Shown: positions 5,245 through 47,665, counted from the stretch's first letter. The stretch is 64,000 nt of DNA from Ignavibacteriota bacterium (GCA_963701295.1 OY969585.1:3520001-3584000); one strand, 5' to 3'. Program-made: numbers and translations. The notes: generated by a model not told the origin, from the letters alone.

Positions 5245-6615
5245 TTAAGGAAGTAAAAGGTGCAATGGCAAAAGCATATGCGGATTTTCAGGCTTTACCA
5301 ATGCCGTTTCCGAAGAAACGATAGTCAACGCTGTAAGCACAACCATCATGATCATCGACACTGACAATTGAATAACTTCGATGGCATTTTTCATGCGATA
5401 GGATGTTTCTTTTTCGTAGTACTCAGCCAATTGAAGCGCAGTCGCTTTTACTGTGCCTGTCTCGGCACCGGAACTAAATCTAGAAATAGCAGTTTTGGTG
5501 AACACACCTGTTGCCTCAAACGCCTCCGTCAAACCTTTGCCACGTTCGAGCATCATCGGTATCGCTATCGTTTTAATCTGATGTTCCATATATCTGTTAC
5601 CGCATGCCTCTGCTGCCATTCGGATAATTTCAATGTTTTCACCCGATCCGCTGTAGAGTGCGTAAAACACACGGCAGAATATTTCGATAGCTGTTTTGTG
5701 CAACATAGAACCAATCACCGGAATTTTAATTAAGTATTGATCTGCCAAGAATCTGCCCCGCTCTGTCCTTATAAATCGCAATAATACAATCAATGGCACA
5801 GTAAATAGGATGGTAAGAACAAGTGCATTGCCCATCAACCAGTCACTGAACTTTAGTGTCGCCGCAGTCATCGGAGGAAGTTTAATGTGAAATTTTATAA
5901 ACATTTCCGCTGTTTTGGGAAATATATATGCGACATAGAACAAACAGGCGAGGAACAATACGAACAACGTAATCAAAGGTGTTATGAGTGCACTCTTGAG
6001 GTTTCTTTTGAATTCTGCATTTCGTTCCATAAATTTTGCAGCGCTCTCATAAATCTCCACCATATTGCCGCTCTTTGATGCTAAGCCAAGCATTTGTGCG
6101 GTGAATTTGCCGATTACCGGCGCTTGTTTCATGAAAACTTTTTCGCTGTCTTTTCCTTGCTTCAATTCCGCATTAATTTCCTTAATGGATTCGCGAAGAG
6201 TTGCATTGGGAATGTCATTGATAAGCAATTGCATCACTTCATTGAATGGAAGTTTTTGCCTCATTAAATCTGTGCTCACTCGTACAAAAGTGATAACATC
6301 AACTGTGGGGGCGGCACGTTGTTTTGTGCCAAATAATTTTTTTCTAACGTAGACAACGCGAAACCCCATCTTCTCTAATGCAATACGAACTTCATCAGAA
6401 GTGAATGCTTTCTGTTCACCGTCAATCGGCTTGTCATCCCCCTTTTGTACACGATAGATGAACGAAAGCCGTTCGTGAATTCCCGTCACTTTAAATTTCT
6501 TGTCGTGAGAGAGTTCTGCTGCTTTTATTTTAGCAATGCTTCTAGTGTCGGCAGTAATTGACCCGGAAACCGCCTTCCCAGAAAGCGTCACACCATCGAT
6601 ACGATATTCAGGCAT
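5245..6615 (-). CDS. pilC: Type IV pilus inner membrane platform protein PilC (GspF family)
   Basis: Two GspF-like repeats, 'GAETG', TM helices, position in operon. Confidence 0.88.
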   Translation of the reverse strand: MPEYRIDGVTLSGKAVSGSITADTRSIAKIKAAELSHDKKFKVTGIHERLSFIYRVQKGDDKPIDGEQKAFTSDEVRIALEKMGFRVVYVRKKLFGTKQRAAPTVDVITFVRVSTDLMRQKLPFNEVMQLLINDIPNATLRESIKEINAELKQGKDSEKVFMKQAPVIGKFTAQMLGLASKSGNMVEIYESAAKFMERNAEFKRNLKSALITPLITLFVLFLACLFYVAYIFPKTAEMFIKFHIKLPPMTAATLKFSDWLMGNALVLTILFTVPLIVLLRFIRTERGRFLADQYLIKIPVIGSMLHKTAIEIFCRVFYALYSGSGENIEIIRMAAEACGNRYMEHQIKTIAIPMMLERGKGLTEAFEATGVFTKTAISRFSSGAETGTVKATALQLAEYYEKETSYRMKNAIEVIQLSVSMIMMVVLTALTIVSSETALVKPENPHMLLPLHLLLP

Positions 6616-22053: not shown

Positions 22054-22289
22054 AACATCCTCCTTTTTAAATAAAAAGTTAAAAAATTAGTATTTAGTTT
22101 ACATAATATACTAAACGAAACAAGTTCATGCTGATAACCAAATTAATTTATCCCCAACCAACGAGGTACCGAAAAGGTAATAATAAAAACGTCAACCCAC
22201 CATTAGCCATGAATTTTGCAGTGCGCTCTTACCGTCAGCTTGAGCGCCTGGTATGTTGAGTCTGTGACAATTATTTTCGTATCCTAATC

Positions 22290-22475
22290 CATTGGCAAAG
22301 TCATAGGAGAGATAGGAGCCGCTAGATATCTTCCCAGAAGAATATCGTTAACCAGATACATCTCCCTATGACTTTCCGCTTCTCAAGAATCTGAACAGTA
22401 CTTTGAGATCCATATTTCTTTCCCGTGGAATCCCGTATAACGCACGAGTCAAGATCACAAGGAAGCTGCCAATGT
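22290..22475 (+). ncRNA. Putative bridge RNA of the IS621-like element
   Basis: Stem aaagtcatagg-agagat/atctc-cctatgacttt encloses GAGCCGCT and TAACCAG (attC target match); downstream ACAGTAC matches the element's right end. Confidence 0.75.
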
Positions 22476-22513
22476 ATTTCTTCTCTTAACCTCTATTTCA
22501 AGGAGCTTTTGCT

Positions 22514-23537
22514 ATGACGATCTTAAAACAAACCATCGGTATCGATGTCTCTTACAAATCCTTCGATGCCAGATTCGGTACCATCAATACTCAACAAGAA
22601 ATAAACCTATCTGCTTCAAAATCCTTCAAAAACTCACTCGCAGGATTCAAACTCTTTCTGCGATGGCTCAAGAAATATATCCTCTCCGACGATATTCCTC
22701 TGGTCTTTGTCATGGAAGCTACTGGCGTCTATTACGAACACCTCTCTCACTTCCTCTTCCAGCAGGGGTATCAAGTTGCCGTTATCCTGCCCAATAAAAT
22801 TAGAAATTATGCCAAATCTCTCGAATCCAAATCCAAAACCGATCCTCATCGATGCCGCCGTCATTACTCGATTTGGCCTTGAACGACAACTCTCACTCTG
22901 GATGCCGCCTTCAGAGACTATAAAAACTCTGCGCGATCTCTGCAGGGAATACCACTGCCTCAAAGCTAACTGCACGCAAATTAAGAATCAACTCCACGCT
23001 CTCCAATCTTCCTTCAAGCCGCACAGAGAGTCCTTCAAACGCAAAACCCAACTCCTCAAATTCCTCGAACGGCAGGTCGCGCTTATTAAAAAGGAACTTC
23101 TCGCCTTAGTCAAGACCGAGCCTGATCTTCTGGCCCAGCGTCTCAAGAAAATCAAAACAGCTAAAGGCCTCGGCGATATGACCATCCTCACCGTCCTATC
23201 TGAAACTCGCTGCTTTGAGCTTGTCTCCAATCAAAAGCAGCTTACCAGCTACGCTGGTTTCGACATCGTCTTTAACGACTCTGGCTTGAAGAAAGGAAAA
23301 ACTTCTATCTCAAAAAAGGGCAATAAGTTTATCCGTAAAGCTCTCTTTATGCCTGCCATCTCTGCCTGCCGGGCTAATCCTGATCTCAAAGAACTCTATC
23401 AACGTCTTATTGCTAAAGGCAAAAATAAAAAACTTGCCATCGTTGCTGTCGCTCGTAAATTATTACTCCTGATCTCCACGCTCTGGAAATCTAATTCTGT
23501 TTACGTCCCCACTTATAAACCGATCCAACTCGTTTAA
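22514..23537 (+). CDS. IS110 transposase/recombinase, frameshifted near 22845
   Basis: 'IGIDVS', 'MEATGVY', 'KTD.IDA', 'DSG' serine motif, 'ISKKGNKFIRKAL', 'AVARKLL'. Confidence 0.88.
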
Positions 23538-23622
23538 TACTTACGCTGTCTCTTGTTCTTTGAAATATTTTTTACTCTAACTCTTGACTTTTACCACAGT
23601 ACCTGGTTAGGCAGCAATTGTA

Positions 23623-36090: not shown

Positions 36091-36424
36091 ATAATTTAAA
36101 TTTAAATTTAAATTTAACGGAGAATTTTTCTTTTTAGTATCAATAAAGCTTTAAATTTCATCGAAGTTCGGCTTGCACTTAACTATTTCAAAACGCAACC
36201 TAACGGATGGCAACTAAGCTGCGGCACTAAAAACCCTCAAGTTGCCGAAAACGAACCAAGTTTATTATAAAATATTTCAATCAATAATCCCTAAGCGCCA
36301 TGCGTAACATACAAACGCTCATACCGTCAGCTTGAGTTGCTGGATATTACCAAAAAGGAATCTCCCGATTATGTACATTGATAATTCTCTAGGTCACCAA
36401 CATCCACAATCTAAGGAGATTCCC

Positions 36425-37426
36425 ATGTATTACTCAGGTATCGATTTGCATTCTGATAATTGTTTTATCACCACTGTTGATGACACTGGTGCTGTCATCA
36501 AGCGACAACGTGTCGAGAATAACAATGAACGTGTTCTTGATTACTTCCACTCTCTGCCCGGTCCTCATCACGCAGTCGTTGAGTCTACCACAGGATGGTA
36601 CTGGCTCAACGATCTTCTCAGCGATCACGGCATCGAGCTTGTCCTTGCTCACGCCAAATATCTCAAAGCCATCAGTTATGCTAAAGTTAAAACAGATAAA
36701 GTCGATTCGCAAACTCTTGCTCTTCTCTTACGACAGGGACTCATTCCACGGGCTCACAAAATCAGCCGAGAACTACGCGGCCTGCGCGATACCATGCGTA
36801 TTCGTCTACGGCTCGTTCAGCAACGAACTGCCAGTCTTCTGCGTCTCTACAGTATTCAGACCAAATTTAACGGCTCTGTTCCGGATCCGTATCGTTTTCA
36901 ACTTGCTGTCTTGCAACATACCAGAGACACTTTTACTGCTCAGATCCTCTCGCTGGAAAAATCTCTCCATCCTGTGCTGATTCCCAACGACGATATTCAA
37001 CGGCTCTTGCACATTCCAGGTATCGGCAAGCTCACCGCATTCACGGTGTATCTTGAAATCGACGGCATTGAACGATTCGACTCCGATAAAAAGTTTGTCT
37101 CTTACTGCCGACTCGTCCCTGCTGCCGATAACTCCAATCGCTCTGTGCACCATCGCTCCAGCAAAGACGGCAATAAGTATCTCAAAATCGCCTTCTCCGA
37201 TGCCGCTGTTCATGCTATTCAGTACTATCCGGAATACAAACGCTTATTCCAGAAATTAGCTCGTCGCTCCAATGAGGCGACTGCGCGAACCGTCGTTGCC
37301 AAAGAACTTGCGAAGATTGTTTACTATGTCTTAAAAAACAAAACAATATATAAAGGTCTCAAAGGTCAGCCGATCAGCCGGCATAAATCTCAGCAGTGGC
37401 CGCGCCTCTCAAGCCCGCTTTCCTAA
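36425..37426 (+). CDS. IS110-family transposase/recombinase
   Basis: RBS AAGGAG; 'GIDLH', 'VEST', 'KTDKVDS', 'IPGIG', 'SKDGNKYLK'. Confidence 0.92.
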   Translation: MYYSGIDLHSDNCFITTVDDTGAVIKRQRVENNNERVLDYFHSLPGPHHAVVESTTGWYWLNDLLSDHGIELVLAHAKYLKAISYAKVKTDKVDSQTLALLLRQGLIPRAHKISRELRGLRDTMRIRLRLVQQRTASLLRLYSIQTKFNGSVPDPYRFQLAVLQHTRDTFTAQILSLEKSLHPVLIPNDDIQRLLHIPGIGKLTAFTVYLEIDGIERFDSDKKFVSYCRLVPAADNSNRSVHHRSSKDGNKYLKIAFSDAAVHAIQYYPEYKRLFQKLARRSNEATARTVVAKELAKIVYYVLKNKTIYKGLKGQPISRHKSQQWPRLSSPLS

Positions 37427-37700
37427 CTGATCCCGACTGCGTCGGGATCGTTCGCTGGATTGGGAAGAGAGTGCGCTGTGCCGTGGTAATATCTGGAACA
37501 TCTCGCTCGACGAGATACGCTTTCACCATCGTTTCTTCAATGAGTGAATGTAAATCCGTAAACTGGTTTGGACGGCATTGCTCTGGTAATCGCCTGTCTA
37601 TTCGATAGAGAACGCGGCATCGGCACGGATTCGGTCGTCCTTAATGTTAAAGAACTCTGCATTCCGATTGCGCGGAACGCATCGGGAGTATATTATTTAC
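37400..37700 (+). ncRNA. Putative bridge/seek RNA of the IS1111-like element, copy 1
   Basis: Two stem-enclosed loops carrying CCTAAC + GCTGG (target) and GGTAATATC + TAAACTGG (donor junction). Confidence 0.7.
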
Positions 37701-37740
37701 TTGACTCTTTCCTTTTTAAACTGGTTATGTTGCAATTGTT

Positions 37741-39819
37741 TCATTTGAGCAAAACAAGTTTCTTCGTTTCAATAAATAAACCCACTTGTAAACGATAAAA
37801 GTAAATTCCGCTCGAAATAGTAGCCGCATTCCATTGACGTGCATGATTTCCTGTCGACATTTCTTCCGAAACCAGTGTTGCTACTTCTCTTCCTAAAATA
37901 TCAAACACCTTCAACGAGACAAAAGATCTATATGGAAGACTAAACGAAATAGTGGTCGACGGATTAAACGGATTAGGATAGTTTTGTTTAAGAGTGAAAT
38001 GCGTTGGTAAGTCGGTCGAATGTTTTACCACTGAAGTGATCACCTCCGACAACTGACGTCTCCAGACGCCGTCCCCAGTCCCTGCAAAAAGATTCGAATC
38101 GGATAAAGCAAGAGCTTGGACAAAATCGTTTGTTAATCCGGTATTGACTTGAGTCCAACTTGTACCATTGTTGGTAGAAAGAAAGACACCGTCATCCAAA
38201 GTTCCAGCAAAGAGAGTTGTACCGGATACAGCAAAAGCATTGATATAATTAGCGTAATTTCCTGTCAATCCTGAATTGACCGCAGTCCAGCTCGCGCCGT
38301 TGTTGGTAGAAAGAAATACACCACCGCCAGAAGTCCCTGCAAAAAGATTCTGGCCGGAAACTGCAAGAGCTAGAACGGTATCATTCGTCAATCCAGTGTT
38401 GACTTGAGTCCAATTTGTACCATTGTTAGTAGAAAGAAAAACGCCATAATAAGTCCCGGCAAAGAGATTCTGGCTGGAAACTGCAAGAGCTAGAACGGTA
38501 TCATTCGTCAATCCAGTGTTGACTTGAGTCCAATTTGTGCCATTGTTAGTAGAAAGAAAAACGCCATAATAAGTCCCGGCAAAGAGATTTGTTCCGGAAA
38601 GGGCAACAGTAGAGACATGAGTGTTCGTCGGTAACCCTGAATTAACAGCATTCCAGCTTGTACCGCTGTTGCTGGAACGAAAGACGCCATCCCTAGTCGC
38701 TGCAAAAAGATTCGAATCGGATAAAGTAAGAGCTTGAACAGTATCGTTCATCAATCCGTTATTGACTACAGTCCAGTTCGTGCCGTTGTTAGTCGAAAGA
38801 AAAACACCACCGCCTTGAGTCCCTGCAAATATTTTTTTATTGGAGATCGCGAGTGTTAAGACTTGAATATCTGTCAAGCTGGTATTAACATCAGTCCAAC
38901 TAATACCGCTATTGGTCGAAAGAAAGATGCCGGCGTCCCGAGTTCCTGCAAAGAGATTTGTACTGGAGACTACAAGAGCATTGACCCAATTGGACGTTAA
39001 GCCGCTATTAACCGCAGTCCAAGTCGTACCATTGGAAGTAGAAAGAAAGACACCTCCGTTCGGGTACGCAGCAAAGAGATTTGTGCCTGAGACTGCAAGA
39101 GCATTGACACCAGCATACTTTAAACCGGTGATGTCCCAGCCTGCGCCGTTATTGGTGGAAAGAAAAACGCCTCCGTTAGCTCCTGCAAAAAGATTTGTGT
39201 CGTAAGCGACAAAAGCATAGACATTAGTGTACGATAAACCGGTATTAACCCAACTTGTACCGTTGTTAGTGGAACGAAAGATACCACCAGAAGTTCCTGC
39301 AAAGAGATTCGTGTCAAAAGCGGCAAGTGTCCATACACAGGTATTCGTCACGCCGGTATTAACCCAACTTGTACCGTTATCACTGGAACGAAAGACGCCG
39401 CTCCAAGTCCCTGCAAAAAGATTCCCGCTAAATACTGTAAGAGCTGTAATAAAATTGTCTGTCAATCCGGAATTGACCGCAGTCCAGCTCATGCCGTTGT
39501 TAATAGAGAGAAAGACACCCCCGCCAGAAGTCCCTGCAAAGATATTCTTTCCAGAAACTGCAAGAGAAGAGACTTCATTATTTGTCAAGCCATTGCTCGC
39601 CGCAATCCAGCTTGTACCGTTATTGGTAGAGAGAATGACACCACCGTCCCAAGTTCCTACGAAGAGATTCGTGTCTGACACGGCAAAGCAAGTTACGTCG
39701 GAGCTACCGACTCCTTTGGTTTGGATCCATTGAGCACGCAATTGATTTGTAGTTGTGAAGAAAACCAATAATACAAAGAGAAATCTGCTAGAACGGACAA
39801 TTCGGAAAATATTTTTCAT
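37741..39819 (-). CDS. Secreted beta-propeller repeat protein with T9SS CTD (paralogue of 13964..15276)
   Basis: About 14 'NLFAGT..GVFLSTNNG..W' repeats; CTD. Confidence 0.85.
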   Translation of the reverse strand: MKNIFRIVRSSRFLFVLLVFFTTTNQLRAQWIQTKGVGSSDVTCFAVSDTNLFVGTWDGGVILSTNNGTSWIAASNGLTNNEVSSLAVSGKNIFAGTSGGGVFLSINNGMSWTAVNSGLTDNFITALTVFSGNLFAGTWSGVFRSSDNGTSWVNTGVTNTCVWTLAAFDTNLFAGTSGGIFRSTNNGTSWVNTGLSYTNVYAFVAYDTNLFAGANGGVFLSTNNGAGWDITGLKYAGVNALAVSGTNLFAAYPNGGVFLSTSNGTTWTAVNSGLTSNWVNALVVSSTNLFAGTRDAGIFLSTNSGISWTDVNTSLTDIQVLTLAISNKKIFAGTQGGGVFLSTNNGTNWTVVNNGLMNDTVQALTLSDSNLFAATRDGVFRSSNSGTSWNAVNSGLPTNTHVSTVALSGTNLFAGTYYGVFLSTNNGTNWTQVNTGLTNDTVLALAVSSQNLFAGTYYGVFLSTNNGTNWTQVNTGLTNDTVLALAVSGQNLFAGTSGGGVFLSTNNGASWTAVNSGLTGNYANYINAFAVSGTTLFAGTLDDGVFLSTNNGTSWTQVNTGLTNDFVQALALSDSNLFAGTGDGVWRRQLSEVITSVVKHSTDLPTHFTLKQNYPNPFNPSTTISFSLPYRSFVSLKVFDILGREVATLVSEEMSTGNHARQWNAATISSGIYFYRLQVGLFIETKKLVLLK
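38341..38580. repeat. Near-perfect 120 bp intragenic tandem duplication
   Basis: 38341-38460 and 38461-38580 differ at only a few positions. Confidence 0.85.
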
Positions 39820-39857
39820 ATGTTCATCTTTTGTGAAATGGTAAAATATCAATTGCA

Positions 39858-40011
39858 ACATAACGGACCGGCGCTAAGCTGCGGCGCTGATAATTTTCAA
39901 TATCTACTAAACGAAATGAGTTCATGCTGGTTCTTTCAAATTACACCAAGCCTTTGCGCGCCATGAATTTTGCACTACGCTCATTCCGTCAGCTTGAGCG
40001 CCTGGTTAGGG
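39858..40011 (-). repeat. attC
   Basis: Consensus arms present. Confidence 0.92.
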
Positions 40012-40023
40012 CGCAGCTACATA

Positions 40024-40052
40024 TTGACAATGTATACTCATTGTAGTATATT
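40024..40052 (+). promoter_or_regulatory. Sigma70-type promoter with a palindromic operator for the TA cassette
   Basis: TTGACA-17 bp-TATATT; ACAATG/CATTGT inverted repeat across the spacer; ATG 5 nt after the -10 box. Confidence 0.8.
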
Positions 40053-40057
40053 TACTT

Positions 40058-40339
40058 ATGAACATCATCTGGGATGAAGAGAAAAACAACAAACTAAAGA
40101 AAGAACGCCACATTTCGTTTGAAGAAATCGAATCATTAATATTGGCAAAGAAATATATAGAAATAGTGAAACATCCAAAACGTATTGGCCAGAGAGTTTT
40201 TATAATTCCAATTAAAGGATATGTACACGCTGTACCGTTCTTGTTAGATGATGACAACAATATTGTTTTGAAAACTGCGTTTCCAAGTCGGAAATTTCAT
40301 AAAAAATATGGACAAAAGAACAATGAAAACAAAACTTGA
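40058..40339 (+). CDS. BrnT-like toxin
   Basis: 'WDEEKN..LK.ER.ISFE' motif; overlaps the downstream antitoxin. Confidence 0.8.
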   Translation: MNIIWDEEKNNKLKKERHISFEEIESLILAKKYIEIVKHPKRIGQRVFIIPIKGYVHAVPFLLDDDNNIVLKTAFPSRKFHKKYGQKNNENKT

Positions 40340-40622
40340 TAAATACGAAAAAGAAATAGAACGATCCGCTAATTCCTACCATTCAGTATCGAAAAATGAG
40401 CGGAACAAAATAGAAGGCGTCTTAGATCGCATAAGAAAAACTAGAAACGTAAATATTCGCCTTTCTGAATCCGTCTTGGAACAACTGAAACGACGTTCCC
40501 GTGAAGAAGGAATCCCTTATCAGACACTTATTTCTAGTGTTTTGCATAAATTTGTTACCGATCGTCTTATAGACGAAGCCGCTATAAGAAAGTCTGTACG
40601 ACTGCTTCATTCTGCCCAATAG
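40323..40622 (+). CDS. BrnA/CopG-like RHH antitoxin
   Basis: 'VNIRL....L..LK.....EGIPYQTLI.S.LH'. Confidence 0.8.
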   Translation: MKTKLDKYEKEIERSANSYHSVSKNERNKIEGVLDRIRKTRNVNIRLSESVLEQLKRRSREEGIPYQTLISSVLHKFVTDRLIDEAAIRKSVRLLHSAQ

Positions 40623-40662
40623 CCCCACAATAACTTCAGTTAATATTGGATTATGCTGCGCT

Positions 40663-40861
40663 GCCTAACGGATGGCAACTAAGCTGACGCACTGATAACT
40701 TTCAAAATGTACTGAACGAAACTGGATTTCATGCTGAATACAAAATTAATTAATACTAAAGTTATGAAGTACAATAAACGTATTAATAAAAACGATAACC
40801 CACCACCAGCCATGCGCAACGTACCCGGCTGGCAACCGTCAGCTTGAGCGCCTGGTTAGGC
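40663..40861 (-). repeat. attC
   Basis: Consensus arms present. Confidence 0.9.
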
Positions 40862-40892
40862 AGCATCCATCGATCAACCGCCAGCGAGGTGT

Positions 40893-41888
40893 TCATGGCT
40901 GCGCGAGAAACCGTCGAATGGCATCAGCCACTTTTATGGAGTCCGACAAAAATACATAATGGTTATTTACTTGATAGTTTGTCTGCTTAAGTTCCAATAT
41001 TTCACCGTTACGCATCTCACGTCGAAAGCGCGCACGCTCGGTTGATAAATAATCGATAGCCCACTGCCCATAAATCGTCGTCGTTCGGCGTTCAGTGGAA
41101 TCCATTTGCGCCCACCTAGAAGGCAAAACAATGAATTCGGGTGACTCACACATCCGATAAATGGCGAGTGCTGGTGCTGAAACCTGCGAGTATGGCGGAT
41201 GCTCCGATCCCCGAAGGAAAACCACGGTGAACGAATCAGGTGTAACATCGCGCTCAATCTTGCCACTTGCATCGAAAACGTACCAAGTTCGTATTTCTGC
41301 CTCAGGCAGCGGATACCCTTTGGCTGCCCAAAAAGCCCGAACAGCTCCCGGTGATGCGGAATCAGCTGCTGTCATGGGTTTGGATTTTACAAATTTAGGT
41401 TGGTTGAGCTGAGCCGTGTGATCGTATGCGGCATCCAGATAAACGAGTCGGCGAACGCGGCTCGGGAAGCGGGCGGCAAGACCGGTAAGTTCGCCTCCTG
41501 CAATTGAATGACCAATGAAGGAAGCACGCGCCACACCTAATGAATCGAGCAGTGACACGAGATCTTTAATCCGTGTCTCAATATCGTATCCGTATGCTGT
41601 CTGGCTCGAGGCGCCAAACCCACGGCGTGTCACTGCCATCACATGGAAGTGGTCTCTGAACTGTGGCGCGAAATCGTCGTAGACATGGGCGGAGAGTCCA
41701 AGACCGGAGAGGAAAATCAATGTATCTCCTCGTCCTCCCCAATCAAGCACTTCCAAGCGTACGTTCGGTGCGACCGTAACAAACTGTATACGATGCGGCG
41801 ATGGATCCGTCCAAGTCTGTGGTGTCGCAGACTGAACAAGAGCGATCAGCAGAACGAAGACTAAGCCACTAATTTTATGTGTATTCAT
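40893..41888 (-). CDS. Secreted alpha/beta hydrolase
   Basis: 'RRGFGAS', GHSIAG; signal peptide; higher GC than neighbours. Confidence 0.85.
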   Translation of the reverse strand: MNTHKISGLVFVLLIALVQSATPQTWTDPSPHRIQFVTVAPNVRLEVLDWGGRGDTLIFLSGLGLSAHVYDDFAPQFRDHFHVMAVTRRGFGASSQTAYGYDIETRIKDLVSLLDSLGVARASFIGHSIAGGELTGLAARFPSRVRRLVYLDAAYDHTAQLNQPKFVKSKPMTAADSASPGAVRAFWAAKGYPLPEAEIRTWYVFDASGKIERDVTPDSFTVVFLRGSEHPPYSQVSAPALAIYRMCESPEFIVLPSRWAQMDSTERRTTTIYGQWAIDYLSTERARFRREMRNGEILELKQTNYQVNNHYVFLSDSIKVADAIRRFLAQP

Positions 41889-41938
41889 TGTATCCTCCGT
41901 GAAATTGGTTTGGGATCAAATCTGTTCATTGCGTTGCA

Positions 41939-42125
41939 GCCTAACGGAACGGCGCTAAGCTGCGGCGCTGATAAGTTTCATAATGCAACCAACGAAACAG
42001 GTTCATGATACTATCTTTCAATTAAACACAAAACCTATGCTCGCCATGCTTAACGTACCCATTTACCCGCCATGCTTTATCTTTGGGCGGGCGCTCATTC
42101 CGTCAGCTTGAGCGCCTGGTTAGGG
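41939..42125 (-). repeat. attC
   Basis: Consensus arms present. Confidence 0.92.
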
Positions 42126-42133
42126 CGCATTTA

Positions 42134-42592
42134 TTATTTCTCGACTGTTTCGTTCGGTTTAATCCCGGGAGATATTGTCCTAAAATTAAAATCTTTAAAT
42201 CTCAGAACCTTTTGTCCGAGGTCTTTCCTAATCGCTAAGATAATTGATCGAATTATATTATCCTGTTGTTCAATGGAATAATCGTCCCCTCGGTGAGTAC
42301 CAATGTAATCAAGAAGATCATGCACTTTCTCCAAGACCTCACGGCTTGCAATAAGATTCATCAAATTGACTGAGTTCGCAAGTTTCCGATGCGCTTCATA
42401 GGATTTATAAATACTTCCCATTTCGGAAAAACCAGACAGGAAATCCATATATCGGTCAAGTTTGAATTTAAGTTCCTGCAATTTTATTTCTCGTCTACGA
42501 TTGAGAAATTGACCGATGACAGCCGCAATTAATGTGGCAAGAGCACCGATGATTGCTACTAAAAGCACATGATTATTTGATGTTGATTCCAT
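42134..42592 (-). CDS. Hypothetical protein with one N-terminal TM helix
   Basis: ORF fills the cassette; ATG about 10 nt from the core, with little room for an RBS. Confidence 0.7.
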   Translation of the reverse strand: MESTSNNHVLLVAIIGALATLIAAVIGQFLNRRREIKLQELKFKLDRYMDFLSGFSEMGSIYKSYEAHRKLANSVNLMNLIASREVLEKVHDLLDYIGTHRGDDYSIEQQDNIIRSIILAIRKDLGQKVLRFKDFNFRTISPGIKPNETVEK

Positions 42593-42829
42593 ATGAAATG
42601 CGCCCTAACGGATGGCAACTAAGCTGCGGCACTAAAAACCCTCAAGTTGCCGAAAACGAACCAAGTTTATTATAAAATATTTCAATCAATAATCCCTAAG
42701 CGCCATGCGTAACATACAAACGCTCATTCCGTCAGCTTGAGTTGCTGGATATTACCAAAAAGGAATCTCCCGATTATGTACATTGATAATTCTCTAGGTC
42801 ACCAACATCCACAATCTAAGGAGATTCCC

Positions 42830-43831
42830 ATGTATTACTCAGGTATCGATTTGCATTCTGATAATTGTTTTATCACCACTGTTGATGACACTGGTGCTGT
42901 CATCAAGCGACAACGTGTCGAGAATAACAATGAACGTGTTCTTGATTACTTCCACTCTCTGCCCGGTCCTCATCACGCAGTCGTTGAGTCTACCACAGGA
43001 TGGTACTGGCTCAACGATCTTCTCAGCGATCACGGCATCGAGCTTGTCCTTGCTCACGCCAAATATCTCAAAGCCATCAGTTATGCTAAAGTTAAAACAG
43101 ATAAAGTCGATTCGCAAACTCTTGCTCTTCTCTTACGACAGGGACTCATTCCACGGGCTCACAAAATCAGCCGAGAACTACGCGGCCTGCGCGATACCAT
43201 GCGTATTCGTCTACGGCTCGTTCAGCAACGAACTGCCAGTCTTCTGCGTCTCTACAGTATTCAGACCAAATTTAACGGCTCTGTTCCGGATCCGTATCGT
43301 TTTCAACTTGCTGTCTTGCAACATACCAGAGACACTTTTACTGCTCAGATCCTCTCGCTGGAAAAATCTCTCCATCCTGTGCTGATTCCCAACGACGATA
43401 TTCAACGGCTCTTGCACATTCCAGGTATCGGCAAGCTCACCGCATTCACGGTGTATCTTGAAATCGACGGCATTGAACGATTCGACTCCGATAAAAAGTT
43501 TGTCTCTTACTGCCGACTCGTCCCTGCTGCCGATAACTCCAATCGCTCTGTGCACCATCGCTCCAGCAAAGACGGCAATAAGTATCTCAAAATCGCCTTC
43601 TCCGATGCCGCTGTTCATGCTATTCAGTACTATCCGGAATACAAACGCTTATTCCAGAAATTAGCTCGTCGCTCCAATGAGGCGACTGCGCGAACCGTCG
43701 TTGCCAAAGAACTTGCGAAGATTGTTTACTATGTCTTAAAAAACAAAACAATATATAAAGGTCTCAAAGGTCAGCCGATCAGCCGGCATAAATCTCAGCA
43801 GTGGCCGCGCCTCTCAAGCCCGCTTTCCTAA
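42830..43831 (+). CDS. IS110-family transposase/recombinase
   Basis: Same protein as 36425..37426. Confidence 0.92.
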   Translation: MYYSGIDLHSDNCFITTVDDTGAVIKRQRVENNNERVLDYFHSLPGPHHAVVESTTGWYWLNDLLSDHGIELVLAHAKYLKAISYAKVKTDKVDSQTLALLLRQGLIPRAHKISRELRGLRDTMRIRLRLVQQRTASLLRLYSIQTKFNGSVPDPYRFQLAVLQHTRDTFTAQILSLEKSLHPVLIPNDDIQRLLHIPGIGKLTAFTVYLEIDGIERFDSDKKFVSYCRLVPAADNSNRSVHHRSSKDGNKYLKIAFSDAAVHAIQYYPEYKRLFQKLARRSNEATARTVVAKELAKIVYYVLKNKTIYKGLKGQPISRHKSQQWPRLSSPLS

Positions 43832-44105
43832 CTGATCCCGACTGCGTCGGGATCGTTCGCTGGATTGGGAAGAGAGTGCGCTGTGCCGTGGTAATATCTG
43901 GAACATCTCGCTCGACGAGATACGCTTTCACCATCGTTTCTTCAATGAGTGAATGTAAATCCGTAAACTGGTTTGGACGGCATTGCTCTGGTAATCGCCT
44001 GTCTATTCGATAGAGAACGCGGCATCGGCACGGATTCGGTCGTCCTTAATGTTAAAGAACTCTGCATTCCGATTGCGCGGAACGCATCGGGAGTATATTA
44101 TTTAC
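43805..44105 (+). ncRNA. Putative bridge/seek RNA, copy 2
   Basis: Same sequence as 37400..37700. Confidence 0.7.
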
Positions 44106-44161
44106 TTGACTCTTTCCTTTTTAAACTGGTTAGGTGCTGTGCCCAGCATTTGCCCGTTATT

Positions 44162-44581
44162 TTATACTCTGAAATCATAGGATTTAAAGTTTTCATACAT
44201 CCTGCAAACTTTAGTCGTAAATTTTAATACACAGTAATCTGGATCGGTTATTCCCTTTGAATAATATATTGTATCACCATCTCGCCAAATTCTATCTTTT
44301 GTAGGTTGATCTTGCAATACTTCCATAAAACCTTTTAACATAATTCCGCGAAAAGAACTACTATCATAGAAATAAATAGAAGCTTTGGAATTCTTCATGT
44401 ATTGTTTCACACGCACCGACGATGTATTGGTAGTAAAATAAAATATTTTTAAACCGTCATTTTCTCTTGGTTTTAACATGGCTTTCAAATTCGGAAACCC
44501 ATCTTCATCAACAGATGAAATAATTGTATTACTACTTTTTCCAACAATAGATAAACCTTTTTTTATTAAGTCTTCATTCAA
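44162..44581 (-). CDS. Pyridoxamine 5'-phosphate oxidase-like FMN-binding protein (general stress protein 26 type)
   Basis: 'SVDEDGFP', 'YFTTNTSS.RV', 'DPDYCVLKF'. Confidence 0.82.
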   Translation of the reverse strand: MNEDLIKKGLSIVGKSSNTIISSVDEDGFPNLKAMLKPRENDGLKIFYFTTNTSSVRVKQYMKNSKASIYFYDSSSFRGIMLKGFMEVLQDQPTKDRIWRDGDTIYYSKGITDPDYCVLKFTTKVCRMYENFKSYDFRV

Positions 44582-44616
44582 TGAATATCTCCTTTTTATA
44601 TTTATGATTGCACAGC

Positions 44617-44814
44617 ACCTAACGGATCGGCGCTAAGCTGCGGCAACGATAACACGCAAGTTGCTGAAAACGAAACAAGTTCATGCTGACAACCAAATTA
44701 AATATTTCCCAACCAACGAGGTACTGAAAAGTTAATTATAAAAACCTAAACCCGCCACAAGCCATGCTCTAAAGTACTCGGGCTCATTCCGTCAGCTTGA
44801 GCGCCTGGTTAGGC
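44617..44814 (-). repeat. attC of the first cassette
   Basis: Consensus arms present. Confidence 0.92.
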
Positions 44815-46306: not shown

Positions 46307-46435
46307 AACACCTCCGTGAATATTTTAGTGAACTACTTAACTATTGTTTATATTACTTCCAGATAATTCTACTCTCTCGATGTGTGCGATTAGATGTGCT
46401 ACACGATGCCTTCTTAGGAATGCACCTTTGCTTGC

Positions 46436-46550
46436 GCCTAACTCTGATTAGACTGCATACCGCAGCCTAATACGCTTTTTTGAGTGTTAGACTGCATATT
46501 GCAGCCTAACATGATGAAATTGTCTGGGAAACTGATAAGTCTGCAGCCAA
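46436..46550 (-). other. attI site with two 25 bp palindromic direct repeats
   Basis: Core GTTAGGC at 46442-46436 lacks an attC arm; repeats at 46447-46471 and 46486-46510; lies upstream of intI. Confidence 0.75.
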
Positions 46551-46705: not shown

Positions 46706-47665
46706 ATGGCCGAACAAAAGTTGTTAGATCGCGTCCGCGATTGCATACGAACCAAACACCTCAGCATTCGCACCGAAGAAGTCTATCTCAATTGGATCAA
46801 ACGTTACATCCTCTTTCATCAAAAGAAGCATCCTCGTGAATTGCGGGAACCGCACATTGAACAATTTCTCACTTCCCTGGCAGTGGATAGCCAGGTCTCT
46901 GCTTCCACACAAAATCAAGCACTGAATGCCATCTTGTTTCTCTATCGCGAAGTGCTTCATATAAAGATCGGGGACATGAATGAAATTATCAGGGCAAAGA
47001 GAACTCAGCGTATCCCTGTCGTCTTTACGAAAAAGGAGATTGAATCTATCCTGCAATATCTCCACGGATCACAAAGACTGATCTGTGCCCTGCTCTACGG
47101 CAGCGGCATGCGCCTGCTCGAATGTCATCGACTGCGCATAAAAGACATCGACTTTCTCAGAAAACAAATCATCGTACGCGAAGGAAAAGGAGAAAAAGAC
47201 CGCATAACGATTCTTCCTGCATCGCTTCTTACGCACCTCGAACATCAAATCGCTAAAGTGAAACTCCTGCATCAAGAAGATAAAACCGATGGCTATGGCG
47301 ATGTATATTTACCGGATGCCATCCGCATAAAATTTCCGCGGGCTGCAAAAGAATTACTATGGCAATATGTATTCCCCTCTTCAAGGCGTTCGATGGATCC
47401 GCTAACAGGAGCCGTCCAACGGCACCATATTGATGAAAGTGTTGTGCAACGCGCTTTTAAAACAGCGTTACAAAAATCCAAAGTGAGAAAAGCAGGAACA
47501 ATACACTCCTTGCGTCACTCATTCGCAACACATCTCTTAGAAGATGGGCACGACATCCGCACCGTCCAGGAATTATTAGGGCACAAAGATGTTAGGACTA
47601 CGATGATCTACACTCACGTCCTGAACAAAAAAGGTCTCACCGTCCGAAGCCCGCTGGATACATAA
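46706..47665 (+). CDS. intI: Integron integrase
   Basis: Tyrosine recombinase residues ('YGSGMR', '[10 protein letters not shown]', 'LGH', 'TMIYTHV') plus the IntI-specific insert 'VYLPDAI..KFP.A...WQYVFPS...RHH'. Confidence 0.96.

Follow-up and report, generated by a model that had tools for sequence, protein, structure and literature searches.

A shared attC body behind two unrelated gene cassettes in an Ignavibacteriota integron: probable homologous recombination between IS1111-type copies

INTRODUCTION

The attC site of an integron cassette governs how often that cassette is excised and captured. In an integron of an Ignavibacteriota bacterium, two cassettes with unrelated genes carry nearly the same attC body, each time interrupted by an identical IS1111-type element, which raises the question of how one attC came to stand behind two different genes. 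A first-pass annotation, made from the sequence alone, had proposed that attC body and insertion sequence (IS) were duplicated together as one unit, either by IS110 recombination at CTGG combined with the integron integrase (IntI) acting at G/TT or by IS-seeded gene conversion, and that attC sites may in this way pass from one gene to another. Here, we analyzed the window, i.e., the whole stretch of 64,000 nucleotides that contains the locus, together with its genome (G000, a single contig of 3.64 Mb), genomes of the same family, and more distant genomes. Positions refer to the window unless they are preceded by G000:C1.

RESULTS

The integron and the duplicated block

The window carries an apparently complete integron, in which minus-strand cassettes lie to the left of an intact integrase gene, intI (46706 to 47665, + strand; 453 bits for TIGR02249 against a cut-off of 265), that is divergent from the array. 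A candidate attI region was read from the sequence at 46435 to 46515 (− strand), at the end of the first cassette, where a short direct repeat holds two CCTAAC motifs at a distance of 70 bp. Between 13964 and 39861, many cassettes encode large T9SS-sorted or carbohydrate-active proteins, and some are two-gene cassettes of up to ~3.7 kb, large by the standards of integrons. From the 134 paired hits of a genome-wide attC catalogue, we removed 11 that were weak or duplicated or lacked a clean end and retained 123 bodies in 11 clusters. The genome has ~120 attC sites in 11 clusters and one intact intI; an intI C-terminus-like fragment of 45 codons (98% identical) lies at G000:C1:581744-581878. The genome also contains recA.

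Two copies of a 1,529-bp block were found on the (+) strand, at 36199 to 37727 and 42604 to 44132 (offset, 6,405), each consisting of CCTAAC, a 140-bp attC body, a 1,377-bp IS, and CTGGTTA. The copies differ by a single mismatch (36323 A versus 42728 T), and identity fails directly outside the block, with positions 36198 and 37728 already differing between the copies. These data confirm the initial reading that identity extends beyond the IS over the whole attC body, with one SNP. With the IntI crossover point and the CTGG adjoining the IS taken as limits, the attC bodies run from 36204 to 36343 in cassette A and from 42609 to 42748 in cassette B (both − strand, the [+] strand being the bottom strand) and are 99.3% identical. 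Cassette A (36204 to 39863) carries gene A, which encodes a BNR/Vps10-like repeat protein with a T9SS C-terminal sorting domain (37741 to 39861, − strand; likely start at 39819). Cassette B (42609 to 44622), the second cassette counted from the integrase end, carries gene B, which encodes a pyridoxamine-5′-phosphate-oxidase-like (PNPOx-like) protein (44162 to 44581, − strand). Between them lie three cassettes (39864 to 42608, − strand), each with a different attC, that encode a BrnT/BrnA-like toxin-antitoxin pair, an alpha/beta hydrolase, and an unknown protein of 152 aa.

As had been claimed, the owner genes are unrelated, and each cassette keeps its own terminal inverted repeat, with 14 (A) and 13 (B) matching bases. 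The first-pass annotation had also placed the ends of the identity at the core sites; the identity does end exactly there, but this stop is uninformative about mechanism because the homology of any two cassettes ends at these sites anyway. The SNP lies inside attC, not in the IS, at a distance of 21 bases from the latter. Its A allele is a standing allele of attC, present in 26 of 113 other sites and in 9 of the 23 sites of the same arm type, and a post hoc count revealed that only 54 of the 4,563 substitutions possible in the block are as common.

The IS element and its predicted guide RNA

The two IS1111-type elements, copy 1 (36344 to 37720, + strand; 1,377 bp) and copy 2 (42749 to 44125, + strand), are identical and lie between the L″ and R″ boxes of attC, in the orientation opposite to that of the cassettes. 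Each carries an IS110-family transposase/recombinase gene (36425 to 37426 in copy 1, + strand; 42830 to 43831 in copy 2) with PF01548 and PF02371 domains and a score of 169.8 bits for NF033542 (cut-off, 140), and the closest homologues of this transposase come from Ignavibacteriota/Bacteroidota assemblies. The non-coding ends of the IS measure 81 bp on the 5′ side of the gene and 294 bp on the 3′ side. Perfect 9-bp sub-terminal inverted repeats, AAAAAGGAA and TTCCTTTTT, are located at 36352 to 36360 and 37709 to 37717; the published range is 7–17 bp (PMC11208160).

A bridge/seek RNA is predicted from the sequence at 37398 to 37600 (+ strand), with putative target guides in one internal loop (CCTAAC, 37422 to 37427; GCTGGAT, 37454 to 37460) and putative donor guides GGTAATATC (37485 to 37493) and AAACTGGTT (37560 to 37568); Rfam gave no match in the window. 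In an alignment of nine related IS right ends, the predicted fold displayed a conserved loop with an invariant CCTAAC, and the loop motif (G/C)CTGG tracked the target in most, although not all, of the nine elements. The predicted donor guide matched the IS right end in 17 of 18 rows, several of which are identical copies, and the predicted guides cover only ~10 target bases. Among distinct IS targets, six of seven end in GCTGG, compared with 33 of 112 IS-free sites (P = 0.005), a bias that the predicted guides fit.

All 11 full IS copies in the genome occupy the same fixed attC position, antisense to the cassettes, and no same-IS dimer was detected among them. Nine identical copies occupy seven different attC bodies, which indicates that the IS normally moves alone; the suggestion that the same attC body might accompany further copies of the IS is therefore not borne out. 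When the empty attC sites of A and B were rebuilt, their bottom strands were predicted to fold by pairing of the R and L boxes, with an extrahelical base (−17.1 and −19.1 kcal/mol, respectively), while the R box is unpaired in the fold predicted for the IS-interrupted attC.

Further IS arrangements were noted in the course of this survey. A second, distant IS110 element lies at 22250 to 23610, inserted at roughly the same position in a different attC, and is probably frameshifted, its open frame being without the N-terminus. Both IS types seem stacked at one site in L021, near position 6000. In addition, attC outer arms are joined directly to 30–65 bp of the IS right end, with the remaining attC and IS deleted, at G000:C1:1810044-1810230, 2384979-2385112, and 3157399-3157430. 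A distant genome (L204, L206, L214, and L217) has a large, Vibrio-like array of very homogeneous, ~220-bp attC sites, in which two copies of one gene (99% alike) have attC bodies that differ at 14 alignment positions and are both IS-bearing.

The shared attC body is unique among unrelated genes

We aligned the 123 attC bodies all against all, as the first-pass annotation had recommended, which revealed a mean identity of 0.63 over 7,503 pairs and only nine pairs of ≥96% identity. Eight of these are copies of the same cassette, and the A/B pair alone sits on unrelated genes, the next-best pair on unrelated genes reaching 95.2%. No IS-free copy of the A/B body occurs among the 123 sites of the genome (nearest, 87.9%). 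The exact body was likewise absent from 85 genomes of the family (best, 86%, with up to nine candidates scored per genome) and found no match among viral contigs. With best values of 87.9% for IS-free bodies in the genome and of 86% among the candidates scored in the family, simple target preference of the IS for an attC body that is common without it, the alternative against which the annotation had set its own proposal, does not account for the pair.

The accompanying claim that the other attC bodies differ from one another holds for whole bodies but not for their parts, in that unrelated IS-free sites share blocks of up to 114 bp. Specifically, two unrelated IS-free cassettes share 114 bp of attC with one mismatch (G000:C1 2495570 versus 3144272), and an identical 288-bp IS-free cassette exists with its outer arm swapped (G000:C1 2479130 versus 2486395). 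Mixing between attC sites therefore does not depend on the IS.

A second IS-linked tract

Over 78 bp of attC and 1,235 bp of IS, two variant IS copies located 12 kb apart on the (−) strand (G000:C1:2396324-2397947 and 2408632-2410242; sites 2397732 and 2410023) agree at every position. This tract ends in the middle of attC and in the middle of the IS, with neither end at a core site, and three attC alleles within it were found in just those 2 of the 123 sites. One of the two variant copies has a predicted donor guide reading ATGG and an own end reading GTGG, whereas guide and end agree in all 16 other rows (several of them identical copies) and in the partner of this copy. The mismatch marks this variant copy as a recombinant, its left part being derived from the partner.

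Overall, at least 70 IS-side bases on unrelated genes are shared by 2 of 54 IS-IS pairs, compared with 2 of 6,209 IS-free pairs (Fisher P = 0.0004, the pairs not being independent). In contrast to the second tract, whose ends lie away from the recombinase cores, the focal pair has an outer arm that is common to many sites: 7 of the 23 sites of the same arm type share at least 16 bases of it with the focal attC, so the true left end of the focal tract may fall within the arm. In another genome (G012, L022), an IS-side tract of 85 bases was considered and discarded as weak, since its module recurs, with two mismatches, at a third site nearby.

Homologous recombination between IS copies

We consider it likely that the A/B pair was made by homologous recombination seeded by IS copies, either through conversion or through duplication by the integrase and a subsequent deletion from IS to IS. 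Pairing would take place in the identical 1.4-kb IS copies, and the attC of one cassette would thereby be placed behind the gene of the other. In the duplication route, IntI would make a second copy of the IS-bearing cassette B at the front of the array; the old B copy and cassette A would then cross over within their IS elements, with loss of the old gene B and of A's own attC, leaving attC-IS-gene A. In the conversion route, a gap or break at one IS would be repaired from the other IS copy, and attC would be copied until homology resumes in the conserved outer arm. The observed ends are expected from both routes alike. Moreover, the SNP allele fits a remnant of the recipient attC, given that a common standing attC allele is what a leftover of the recipient is expected to be.

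Cassette B is second from intI, where the duplication route would put the front copy, and copy-and-paste duplication of cassettes has been shown experimentally (Souque et al. 2021, PMC8024014). The genome also holds an IS-bearing cassette duplicated exactly from crossover point to crossover point, with different neighbours (G000:C1:234188-236151 and 2473896-2475859), which is the only other case of an attC body shared among the nine identical IS copies. This duplicate hints that interruption by the IS may not stop IntI from moving an attC, but it could instead represent two separate insertions. The duplication route needs an IS-interrupted attC that IntI can use and is therefore weakened by the R box being unpaired, in the predicted fold, with the IS in place. 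IntI1 is reported to tolerate single changes in the core triplet (PMC2811028). Of the two mechanisms originally offered, the IS-seeded one, taken as conversion or homologous recombination, is the best-supported reading, with the second tract ending mid-attC and mid-IS.

A strain with the ancestral arrangement was not found, gene B itself being without a match in the 85 family genomes. This attC was downstream of gene B homologues in none of the 16 metagenome loci inspected (of 80), and none of 10 other T9SS cassettes in the genome has a similar attC; look-alike attC sites in relatives sit on many gene types. Among 75 near-identical IS pairs from seven other genomes (55 of them from a single genome with uniform attC sites, IS-bearing and IS-free alike), none shares the whole body at 99%, indicating that the event is rare.

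Alternative explanations

A shared attC body might have existed first without the IS, through attC-to-attC recombination or a common template, and then received an independent IS insertion in each cassette. The preference of the IS for GCTGG arms, the 114 bp of attC that unrelated IS-free sites can share, and the location of the SNP in attC rather than in the IS are all compatible with such a history, but it requires a rare event plus two hits, and neither an unrelated IS-free pair of ≥96% nor an IS-free copy of the body was found in the genome, which leaves it unlikely. Alternatively, the bridge recombinase might have cut between neighbouring IS copies, at the right junction of one and the left junction of the next, releasing an IS-free hybrid cassette circle and leaving an IS dimer; the dimer would later have collapsed to one copy, which would end up between the first attC and the second gene. 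RNA-guided excision and inversion of DNA by IS110 recombinases has been described (PMC11208160); the element studied here has predicted target and donor guides, and the IS copies are directly oriented in one array. However, the SNP is suggestive of a crossover on the upstream side of the CTGG core, the second tract (2397732/2410023) ends away from the cores, none of the 11 copies forms a same-IS dimer, and the re-joined empty target of ISEc11 was not detected (PMC11187229), so that we rate this scenario as quite unlikely. It is similarly improbable that attC-targeting IS1111 elements form a dedicated attC-exchange system and a main source of the mosaic attC sites in these arrays, in which the bridge recombinase would recombine the junctions of neighbouring copies and set free hybrid circles without the IS, each holding the gene of one cassette and the attC of another, for re-integration by IntI.

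We also weighed whether the pair was produced during assembly or polishing, by one attC being copied over the other beside the repeated IS. The block adjoins a nine-copy repeat, and no read or contig bridges either copy from end to end. Nevertheless, the same single-contig assembly retains seven bodies beside identical IS copies, as well as the SNP, and a 1,200-base contig of run X1, which may be the source sample, matches 36300 to 37499 with no difference and crosses the attC-IS junction with the copy 1 allele, the copy 2 junction being outside its cover. Contigs of 7 of the 20 runs were compared; long exact pieces occurred only in X1, and the runs with small shares represent other strains, which, like gaps in cover, count neither for nor against the pair. 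No joint of a circular IS intermediate appeared among these contigs. An artefact appears quite improbable. Still more doubtful is that one cassette was newly built by a process that copied an existing attC with the IS inside. A published model, as outlined in PMC7923331, has two copies of an attC-targeting intron joining a gene to an attC by homologous recombination, and the closest metagenome homologues of gene B that were inspected (16 of 80 loci) are without such an attC, but both genes, as is the case for other cassettes, own terminal repeats of 13–14 bp, which downstream joining alone would not supply, and the second tract is only partial. Finally, we give very little credence to the other mechanism of the first-pass annotation, a mobile unit of attC body plus IS on which IS110, at CTGG, and IntI, at G/TT, would have acted jointly. 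Although the exact end of identity at both core sites is what such a unit would leave, homology stops there for any cassette pair, and the true left end may fall within the outer arm, which many sites share. In addition, one circle would presumably need different recombinases at its two ends, other bodies stand at seven of the nine IS copies, and the whole body at 99% accompanied none of the 75 pairs elsewhere. We also rejected, as support for a mobile unit, a distant genome in which near-identical attC bodies surround 11 IS copies, as its IS-free attC sites are of that homogeneous family too.

DISCUSSION

Rather than representing a new mobile unit, the A/B pair most likely captures a change of attC between cassettes. 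As both genes have their own terminal repeats, the exchange took place between existing cassettes and says little on how an attC is first gained.

The element shares several features with the IS1111-attC group, represented by ISPa21, ISPst6, and ISKpn4: an IS110-type transposase, sub-terminal inverted repeats, a long downstream non-coding region, and insertion at one fixed point near the attC 5′ end, antisense to the cassettes (PMC3001079 and PMC11187229). It differs from those elements in its Ignavibacteria-like host, and the likeness is one of features. Within the available text of the same two accounts, exchange of attC bodies between cassettes through the IS is not described. The group IIC-attC intron model (Leon & Roy 2009) likewise invokes two attC-targeting copies and the joining of a gene to an attC by homologous recombination (as outlined in PMC7923331 and PMC3001079). 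In contrast to that model, the present case involves a DNA IS and two partners that are cassettes from the outset, and attC is replaced rather than first acquired.

Gene conversion of attC sites (59-be), proposed for Vibrio (Boucher et al. 2006; PMC1382264), is a non-reciprocal recombination that makes the attC sites of unrelated cassettes alike. Unlike in the Vibrio proposal, the attC sites here are diverse (mean identity, 63%), so that single tracts stand out; on unrelated genes, the two longest tracts on the IS side adjoin IS copies. Copy-and-paste by IntI places duplicates at the array front, and redundant copies are lost, among other ways by homologous recombination (PMC8024014); in our case, by contrast, IS copies of different cassettes would delimit the deletion, and its product would be a hybrid cassette.

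In the literature searched, no account of IS1111-mediated attC exchange was found, although Tetu & Holmes 2008, Leon & Roy 2009, and Post & Hall 2009 may discuss it; in the bridge RNA literature searched, attC was encountered only in the title of a reference. Gene conversion of attC (PMC1382264) and gene-attC joining via two element copies (as outlined in PMC7923331) are already proposed. What may be new, and modest in extent, is the use of IS1111-attC copies as portable homology that reassigns attC between existing cassettes.

The origin of cassettes from genes is not solved by an attC swap, and the basis for the present reading is two events in one assembly. The arrangement itself is real and rare, and most likely made by ordinary parts. 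These two snapshots, in which IS copies apparently serve as portable homology, offer a DNA-IS counterpart of the intron and Vibrio ideas. Because attC sets the frequency of excision and capture, swapping it would re-tune the mobility of the gene, and it undermines the assumption that an attC marks the origin of its cassette.
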